A program made the translations under genes and the position numbers. A DNA stretch of 60,653 bases from Bacillota bacterium (GTDB taxonomy: Bacteria; Bacillota; Clostridia; Acetivibrionales; DTU013): positions 1 to 60,653 of the forward strand of contig JBLNDI010000064.1 in the NCBI GenBank assembly GCA_050261495.1, in the 5' to 3' direction. Of the stretch, positions 959 through 1,356 are shown one piece after another (the first letter of the stretch is position 1; each line of letters begins with the position of its first letter). Under the pieces are notes generated by a model that did no database searches, had not been told where the DNA came from, and saw only the letters and a list, made by a program, of their open reading frames with translations.

Positions 959-1356
959 ATAGCGTAGGGAACATAACGGTTGAGCCAAGATCCATATATG
1001 CTCTGTGCTGGGGTATATATGGGTCGGCCAAAGATTGCATATAGGCCTGGGTGGCTTATATGCAGTCGGAGGGAAGATTTTGCATGGTAGGGAAAGGCTC
1101 TGTTATAGTCAAAACTGGTGTTTGATTATAACAGGATCCCAACTTATCATGCAAGGTCGAGCTAAGATTTTGCAGGGTGCCGTAAATGGTTATATCCGGC
1201 CGGTCGGCTGGATATAGCCGTGCAGCAAGTATCCTGCAGGGTCGAACAAACCATCATTATGGGTTATGAACTGTCCGGTCATGGTCGGGAGATCATGGCC
1301 AGGCAATAAGTTATCCATAATGGTGCAAGGTAGATCGTTATGTTCCTTATGTTATT
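958..1356 (+). ncRNA. Candidate large structured non-coding RNA (six-way junction, nine long helices)
   Basis: Pairings checked by hand: closing helix 958-981/1333-1356; hairpins 989-1025 and 1033-1067; two-helix arms 1076-1158, 1166-1243 and 1252-1325. About 29 G-U pairs versus one C-A mismatch on the + strand. GGGA tetraloop at 1287-1290. No credible ORF. Confidence 0.75.

Follow-up and report, generated by a model that had tools for sequence, protein, structure and literature searches.

A large five-armed RNA gene candidate with a sporulation-type promoter motif in SASP-bearing Bacillota

Contig JBLNDI010000064.1 (assembly GCA_050261495.1) of a Bacillota bacterium (Clostridia; Acetivibrionales; DTU013) was analyzed over 60,653 nucleotides (the window). 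Near its start, at positions 966-1348 of the + strand, it harbors a 383-nt element in which a closing helix (P1) and five long arms meet at a single junction. There is little doubt that this element is a real RNA gene belonging to an uncatalogued family. Control of the gene by the sporulation program is probable. A scaffold or assembly role, rather than some other role, is suggested by the modeled architecture, and we hold it tentatively, at less than even chances. The best explanation overall, toward which the balance tips slightly, is a free-standing, trans-acting and uncatalogued structured non-coding RNA (ncRNA) that is expressed during sporulation and is architectural in function.

The fold of the + strand is far more stable than its composition would predict. 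The minimum free energy (MFE) is -194.8 kcal/mol, compared with -113.7 ± 5.6 kcal/mol for 100 dinucleotide shuffles (z -14.6), none of which is as good, and the - strand reaches only -123.3 kcal/mol. Because 27-49 of the 138 pairs are G-U in the 11 homologs, the fold belongs to the + strand. When the window sequence is aligned with 10 BLAST homologs (alignment A1, 11 rows and 411 columns), RNAalifold returns the same five-arm fold with 138 pairs, of which 42 are changed on both sides, against 18.8 in shuffled alignments. Paired cells make up 97.1% of 1508, vs. 91.5% in the shuffles and 37-42% when the partners are slid by 1-3 columns, and doubly changed cells number 89 vs. 27.6. None of 500 alignment shuffles matches any of the five covariation measures, and every helix contains at least one compensatory pair. 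Counting covariation on a structure predicted from the same alignment favors the result somewhat, with a margin that is still very large. The five-arm structure is real and is maintained by compensatory changes. Conservation is highest in the arm bases (AA-G-A-U...G-U-C-G) and in the purine-rich linkers (GAGCNAA, GGCCAAA, GGAGGGAA). From 5′ to 3′, the element is composed as follows:

966-981, + strand: 5′ strand of P1, 16 pairs with 1333-1348, 98.9% of cells paired in 11 sequences
982-988, + strand: linker J1, GAGCCAA, near-invariant across 26 sequences
989-1025, + strand: arm 1, 16-bp hairpin with base GAU/GUC; helix 2, with 5 pairs changed on both sides
1026-1032, + strand: linker J2, GGCCAAA; GTCGGCCAAAG is near-invariant (26 sequences)
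1033-1067, + strand: arm 2, 15-bp hairpin with base GAU/GUC; helices 3-4, with 4 pairs changed on both sides
1068-1075, + strand: linker J3, GGAGGGAA; GG.GGG.AGA is conserved
1076-1158, + strand: arm 3, two-tier, with a basal helix, a conserved internal loop (GAAA / CCAA) and a distal helix
1159-1165, + strand: linker J4, GAGCTAA; GAGC[UG]AAGA in all sequences
1166-1243, + strand: arm 4, two-tier, with base GAU/GUC; helices 7-9, with 10 pairs changed on both sides
1244-1251, + strand: linker J5, GAACAAAC; GGTCGAAC[AG]AACCAT is invariant in 11 sequences
1252-1325, + strand: arm 5, with 13 bp, a conserved 7x7 internal loop (UAUGAAC / AAUAAGU), 15 bp and a GNRA tetraloop
1326-1332, + strand: linker J6, CAAGGTA; GGTG[CT]AAG.TA.A is conserved
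1333-1348, + strand: 3′ strand of P1, paired with 966-981

P1 (16 bp) closes the five-way junction, and one of its pairs is AU in four and GC in four of the 11 aligned sequences. Arms 1 and 2 each form a single-tier hairpin (15-16 bp). Arms 3, 4, and 5 consist of two tiers, a helix of ~13 bp and one of ~15 bp separated by a conserved internal loop and capped by a terminal loop. Nine pairs of arm 3 (helices 5-6) and 13 pairs of arm 5 (helices 10-11) are changed on both sides. The arm 5 tetraloop is closed by GUC/GAU and reads GGGA in the window and GGAA, GAAA, or GUGA in homologs. Among the linkers, GAGC-N-AAG is repeated in J1, J4 and, for the long size type described below, J5. RNAalifold further predicts a 3-bp pairing between J1 and J2, which is invariant among the 11 aligned sequences; inspection by eye shows it disrupted in some distant homologs. 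Comparison by eye with known motifs gave no fit of the conserved loops to the 11-nt tetraloop receptor, the sarcin-ricin motif, the k-turn, the T-loop, or the hammerhead core. A GTG-started open frame of 70 aa lies inside the RNA (1005-1217, +). Across the 11 homologs the longest + strand frame measures anywhere between 43 and 80 aa, and conservation follows the structure; the frame is read as probably non-coding.

An initial annotation of this DNA, made from the letters alone, had recognized the modular layout. Its description can be read off the sequence: GAT (989-991, 1033-1035, 1076-1078, 1166-1168) and GTC (1023-1025, 1065-1067, 1156-1158, 1241-1243) delimit the first four arms, all six linkers (GAGCCAA, GGCCAAA, GGAGGGAA, GAGCTAA, GAACAAAC, CAAGGTA) carry the letters it gave, and the junction end of the closing helix reads GTT (979-981) / GAT (1333-1335). 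The span it assigned, 977-1336, is too short and truncates the closing helix, and the promoter-like pair, the T-rich tail, the broad distribution, and the tie to spore formers escaped it.

The RNA is widespread and patchy in its occurrence. Full-length BLAST matches with 72-82% identity are found in 10 of 40 related genomes, all belonging to the same family, which is represented by 24 genomes. When one genome per species was scanned for an exact pattern, 32 loci were returned, with six assemblies holding two loci each. Named carriers are Acetivibrio alkalicellulosi, A. straminisolvens, A. mesophilus, and one Acetivibrio metagenome-assembled genome (MAG); further carriers include Clostridium polyendosporum, Thermoanaerobacterium butyriciformans, and many Clostridia/Bacillota MAGs. 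A covariance model of the 5′ domain (R1, linker-arm-linker-arm-linker, built from 26 sequences) was searched in samples that exclude Bacilli. It matches 74 of 149 genomes of the order (44 of 60 genera, 1-7 copies per genome), 21 of 150 genomes in an evenly drawn sample of the class, and 54 of 151 genomes (47 of 129 genera) in an evenly drawn sample of the phylum. The element is single-copy in the window and in its own genome, where a second copy was looked for and not found, and viral contigs of IMG/VR gave 0 matches.

Two size types occur. The 56 distinct elements are 329-533 nt long (median 398), and one more measures 539 nt. Elements of the short type, like that of the window, measure about 370-410 nt; the longer type has an arm 4 with a three-way branch, and insertions can occur in its arms 1-3. 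The highest number of 5′-domain matches, seven, occurs in a genome (G112) with two near-identical 446-nt copies 9.4 kb apart on one contig (C36, 204-649 and 9602-10047, both on the - strand). A minimal variant of 337 nt (L060; G060:C1, 773-1109, +) has arms 3 and 5 much shortened; the usual CATAATA box is absent upstream, where the sequence reads GGACAAAATAAAT. The same genome holds a 502-nt copy as well (L059, 837-1338, -).

Using SASP genes (PF00269) as a proxy for spore formers, the RNA is confined to SASP-bearing genomes in the samples searched. In the class sample, where one of the 151 genomes could not be scored for the RNA, 111 of 151 carry SASP genes; all 21 RNA-positive genomes are among them, and the RNA occurs in none of the 40 genomes without SASP. 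In the phylum sample, SASP genes occur in 131 of 151 genomes, including all 54 that are RNA-positive, and the RNA in 0 of the 20 without. The association has one-sided Fisher p-values of 8.9e-4 (class) and 6.5e-5 (phylum), both inflated by kinship.

The element is preceded by a conserved promoter-like pair and followed by a T-rich tail:

930-934, + strand: -35-like GAATA (within TGAATA, 929-934), first half of the conserved upstream pair
952-958, + strand: -10-like CATAATA, 17 nt past the -35-like element, second half of the conserved pair and a match to the promoter position weight matrix (PWM) described below
1349-1362, + strand: T-rich tail past P1, by its sequence the likely 3′ end or terminator tract

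The arrangement G.AT.-17/18-CA...TA is found upstream of 38 of 43 distinct loci, with the consensus TGAATw-17-CATAATAAT. The -10 element begins with CA in 38 of 43 loci, and the -35 element is G.AT., not TTGACA. In Bacillus, forespore promoters roughly follow TGAATA-17/18-CATACTA for sigma-G and GCATA-15-GGnnAnAnTA for sigma-F. We take the CATAATA of the window to resemble the -10 element of sporulation sigma factors, and the TGAATA/CATAATA pair presumably resembles a forespore sigma-F/G promoter. Excerpts of one source give a G upstream of the -10 element as typical of sigma-F and an A downstream as typical of sigma-G (PMC3789822). A simple sigma-70 promoter scan found nothing at the 5′ end of the element. 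At the 3′ end, at least 6 T occur within 12 nt after P1 in 51 of 56 distinct homologs, and a simple terminator scan returned nothing at this position because the "loop" would measure 350 nt.

A PWM was built from the promoters of loci in other genomes and applied with a 14-bit threshold. The site in the window is the top match of the 2.79-Mb genome (26.4 bits, next 22.4), in which 91 matches exceed 14 bits. The 20 best matches linked to an open reading frame (ORF) include SleB, a GerW/YtfJ protein, and a YetF-family protein (G000:C85, 19298-20008); only 3 of these 20 are clearly spore genes, which gives modest support for a spore regulon. The third-best match genome-wide (20.4 bits, TGTATT-18-CAGATTA) lies on the - strand of G000:C69, ~9.2 kb into the contig when this is reverse-complemented; no ORF occurs within 300 nt, and the stretch around the site has no long open frame. 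It could be a further promoter of this kind, driving another noncoding RNA. The best scores within 250 nt upstream of gene sets in five carrier genomes are distributed as follows:

Forespore genes (SASP, SpoVT, Gpr, SpoIIR, SpoIVB, SpoVAC), n 38: median PWM score 6.85
Mother-cell genes (SpoIVA, SpoIIID, SpoIIP), n 15: median PWM score 3.3
Control (background) stretches, n 106: median PWM score 0.8

Forespore genes score higher than mother-cell genes (one-sided Mann-Whitney p 0.025, with orthologs that are not independent). Inspected by eye, the SASP promoters of three genomes have a -10 element of the CA.A.TA kind, and none reaches the threshold of the RNA-promoter PWM. On sequence grounds, this evidence favors a sporulation promoter of the forespore type. 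Sixteen RNA runs from five studies contain the homolog copy of genome G060.

The gene appears to stand alone. In the window, a TrkH gene ends at 878 (+), and the gene downstream of the RNA lies on the opposite strand. It belongs to a pair of chromate-transporter genes:

1375-1944 and 1945-2541, - strand: chromate-transporter pair of 189 and 198 aa, each with a single Chromate_transp domain

This split pair also adjoins the RNA in close relatives. Across 30 other loci no conserved neighbor gene was found (neighbors there include TPR/RadC, VanW, MCP/chemotaxis receptors, YetF, GNAT, and permeases), and neighbors are shared among close relatives only. Since the flanking genes are not conserved, the element is a free-standing RNA gene, neither a leader nor an element of a 3′ untranslated region, and its position suggests no partner protein. 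Among the loci compared, no transposase or integrase adjoins the RNA, and no nuclease or toxin gene lies near it. YetF/DUF421 genes adjoin the RNA in two loci (L032 and L056), possibly by coincidence. A cis-regulatory leader or riboswitch was rejected on the opposite orientation of the downstream gene and the lack of conserved flanking genes. A type III toxin-antitoxin array, which would need tandem near-identical repeats ahead of an endoribonuclease toxin gene, was rejected as well: the arms differ in length and sequence, the neighbors are TrkH and chromate-transporter genes, and the 30 loci share no conserved neighbor. Elsewhere in the window, a T-box leader (55995-56238, +, 98 bits, E 2.3e-20) is the only Rfam match at gathering score.

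The RNA is undescribed in the sense that it was not found in Rfam 15 or in the literature covered. Taking the gathering score of each family as the criterion, no Rfam 15 covariance model matches the element in a scan of the whole window. At E <= 10, both strands of 850-1420 yield only mir-1744 (17.1 bits, gathering 73) and GlsR6 (10.6 bits, gathering 75), and both matches are chance-level; at E <= 0.1, seven homolog loci representing both size types give 0 matches. No description was found in the full-text literature, including excerpts of the main survey papers and of PMC3025663, PMC11109978, PMC8632094, and PMC10861870; their supplementary tables are outside this scope, and a listing there is possible.

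Several known RNAs share individual features with it. CsfG and Bvs196/S547 are, in the excerpted sources, Bacillus small RNAs controlled by the forespore factors sigma-F/G (PMC3574147, PMC9147052, PMC8583004); Bvs196 measures 294 nt and is described there from Bacillus only, and CsfG is a 136-nt RNA with CU-rich loops on the reverse strand of the ylbH leader (PMC3574147). As far as these excerpts go, the new RNA would resemble them as a stand-alone ncRNA gene with a forespore-type promoter, limited to endospore formers and with a stable conserved fold. In contrast to CsfG and Bvs196 as described there, it is 383 nt long and has a five-arm junction with purine-rich linkers. Identity with CsfG is ruled out by size, by composition, and by the lack of a match to the ylbH model on either strand. 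The raiA motif RNA (RF03072), whose disruption in a Clostridium is reported to cause sporulation and aggregation defects (PMC10861870, PMC11706538), is likewise a free-standing, highly structured ncRNA of Bacillota, and its biochemical function is also given there as unknown. The RNA described here has no sequence or structure match to raiA in the Rfam scan, is about twice as long, and differs in having repeated long arms arranged around a single five-way junction, as well as a promoter motif of the sporulation type. ROOL and GOLLD assemble as RNA-only multimers according to excerpts of the structural work (10.1101/2024.12.08.627333, PMC9723947). Like OLE, ROOL, and GOLLD as these sources portray them, the element is a large and intricate bacterial RNA that has numerous helices and strongly conserved unpaired regions, and to which no catalytic role has been assigned. 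Unlike them, it shows no homology, is smaller (329-539 nt) and is more regular, with near-perfect helices of 13-16 bp and repeated arm bases. Hints toward contacts of the ROOL/GOLLD kind are limited to the predicted GNRA tetraloops (107 of 183 tetraloops in MFE folds) and the conserved internal loops. The lysine riboswitch also has five helices that emanate from one junction with conserved joining strands. The element shares this layout, has no Rfam match and twice the size, and shows a T tract directly after the closing helix rather than an expression platform followed by an ORF.

The arms are related to each other. Arm-to-arm similarity is highest for arms 3 and 4 (z 7.2), followed by arms 1 and 2 (z 4.7) and arms 4 and 5 (z 3.6); 0, 0, and 1 of 500 mononucleotide shuffles, respectively, score as high. 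In at least 12 loci of the order sample and in 8 of the phylum sample, the 5′-domain model finds a second, weaker match 250-340 nt downstream within the same element. Because the arms are alike and the 5′ domain recurs internally, growth by internal duplication of a linker-arm module, as the initial annotation had proposed, is plausible. The same annotation held that helix length and end motif are conserved rather than sequence. Sequence does change in the helix interiors, by compensatory substitutions, while the arm bases and linkers are fixed, and arm size varies. The GAU/GUC ends that it expected homologs to keep are kept in the family of the window, where G-C, A-U, and U-G are each present in 11 of 11 sequences at the bases of arms 3 and 4 (except G-C of arm 3, 10 of 11), with arms 1 and 2 nearly invariant as well. 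In distant homologs the second and third pairs change (GGU/GCC, GAA/UUC, GAG/UUC): G-C may stand in second place, and A-U or G-U in third. Features that hold generally are limited to the closing G...C pair, the AA before it and the G after it, and the rule for an arm across homologs is AA-[G...C]-G.

The boundary motif G[UC]CG-N2-7-AAG[AG] recurs beyond chance within the elements, with 2.75 occurrences per element in 56 distinct homologs vs. 0.135 in dinucleotide shuffles. The related search for boundary motifs across the surrounding DNA was less telling: GTCG-N3-8-AGAT occurs 8 times in the 60.6-kb window against 7.2 expected, which is no enrichment, and three of the eight occurrences fall inside the 383-nt element. 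Variation in arm number, also raised at the outset, is seen to a limited extent in MFE parses of 35 homologs (29 with five branches, one with six, five unparsed). Of 158 branch ends in these parses, 45 are GAU/GUC and 11 GAC/GUC, and linker-linker pairings (GCC/GGC, CCA/AGG) blur the count. Among the 183 MFE tetraloops, 66 are closed by GUC/GAU and 33 by GCC/GGU; the terminal loops are thus closed by the arm-base triplets in opposite order. As the same triplets flank the junction and the loops, the linkers (G-N5-6-A) and the GNRA caps, both placed between GUC and GAU, look like two versions of one device.

In the explanation we prefer, the gene would be switched on in sporulating cells, most likely by sigma-F/G RNA polymerase in the forespore, and its product would act as an intact and very stable architectural molecule. 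The fixed junction strands and the G-C/A-U/U-G arm bases would create a core that is compact and pseudo-symmetric. For tertiary docking, either intramolecular or between copies, the arms may use their GNRA tetraloops and conserved internal loops; they may also offer four to six equivalent sites to some spore protein. The arms themselves would derive from internal duplication of the linker-arm module. A bolder version, which we regard as doubtful, sees a phylum-wide and hitherto undescribed class of large structured RNA made in the developing spore of Clostridia-type bacteria. The molecule would form a pseudo-symmetric five-armed particle, self-assembling through GNRA loops and receptor-like internal loops or acting as the core of a spore ribonucleoprotein, with a role in dormancy, resistance, or germination.

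A number of observations weigh against this explanation. The genus of the window has just one further genome (91% complete), in which the RNA was not found, and many spore formers do not carry it. The link to SASP may reflect ancestry alone, as most sampled genomes carry SASP. A TATAAT-like box replaces the usual -10 element at 5 of 43 loci, CATAAT agrees with the housekeeping -10 TATAAT at 5 of 6 positions, and CATA-type boxes are also used by the mother-cell factors sigma-E/K according to excerpts of PMC3789822. Most of the 20 best ORF-linked PWM matches belong to housekeeping or unknown genes, and the SASP promoters of the same genome stay below the 14-bit threshold. The sigma assignment itself draws on a general consensus and on modest in-genome comparisons of sequence, and the scaffold or assembly role is suggested by the modeled anatomy. 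Logan contigs from four of the runs with the G060 copy are 9-16 kb long and evenly cover the whole 2.1-kb stretch, and are uninformative on a discrete transcript, its ends, strand, or level.

Some of these points would suit a structured housekeeping or stationary-phase RNA transcribed with the primary sigma factor, in which case there would be no special tie to sporulation and shared ancestry would account for the confinement to SASP-bearing genomes. The near-match of CATAAT to TATAAT, the TATAAT-like boxes at a minority of loci, the prevalence of SASP in the samples and the modest PWM support from known forespore genes all agree with such an RNA. However, C is the first base of the -10 element at 38 of 43 loci, the -35 element does not resemble TTGACA, and the sigma-70 scan is blank at the site. 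Furthermore, the RNA occurs in 0 of 60 SASP-negative genomes, and PWM scores are higher in forespore than in mother-cell and background regions. We consider this alternative unlikely.

About equally improbable, in our estimate, is a multivalent protein sponge or platform, the leading idea of the initial annotation, in which each AAGAU...GGUCG base together with a GAGCNAA-type linker would be one site for the same RNA-binding protein, so that the RNA titrates or assembles that protein. This alternative overlaps the preferred explanation and differs in making the protein the point of the repetition. Each molecule contains four to six near-identical arm-base/linker modules at its most conserved positions, their number varies among homologs, and the same GUC...GAU triplets close the terminal loops too, as repeated binding sites would predict. 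However, no conserved protein gene lies beside the RNA in 30 loci, and J1 to J6 differ from each other, each conserved in its own form and in a fixed order, which fits a single folded core better.

The repeated boundaries of identical sequence had also prompted the idea of an array-like precursor that is cleaved at the GUC/GAU arm bases to release several small hairpin RNAs. Beyond the repetition, nothing speaks for it, and we judge it very improbable. The arms do not repeat a single unit: each has a conserved form and internal loops of its own. The closing helix is present in all 56 elements (which were selected by that helix), has 98.9% of its cells paired in 11 sequences and includes one covarying pair. 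There is no nuclease or toxin gene nearby in the loci compared, and there are no further copies in the window or genome. That the closing helix joining both ends is kept, and that the arms are not identical copies, favors a function of the intact molecule. The least credible alternative is an element acting as DNA (a mobile repeat, recombination site, or single-strand origin) with no RNA gene, for which long inverted repeats and up to seven copies in some genomes could be cited, and against which stand the single copy in the window's genome, the 0 matches in IMG/VR, the absence of an adjoining transposase or integrase among the loci compared, the strand-specific fold indicated by 27-49 G-U pairs, and the promoter-like pair and T tail conserved in the sense orientation.

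To our knowledge, only a handful of large bacterial RNAs combine strong structural conservation with unknown function (OLE, ROOL, GOLLD, raiA), and each of them started a line of work. The RNA described here occurs in about one third of the 151-genome phylum sample and half of the 149-genome order sample, displays very clean covariation and has no match in Rfam 15. Its regular design, with helices of 13-16 bp, identical G-C/A-U/U-G ends at junction and loop, and GNRA caps, may be of interest to RNA structural biology and RNA nanotechnology. As far as we know, hardly any work has addressed the RNA biology of the clostridial spore, and the restriction to SASP-bearing genomes together with the sporulation-type promoter motif provides a concrete and testable entry point.

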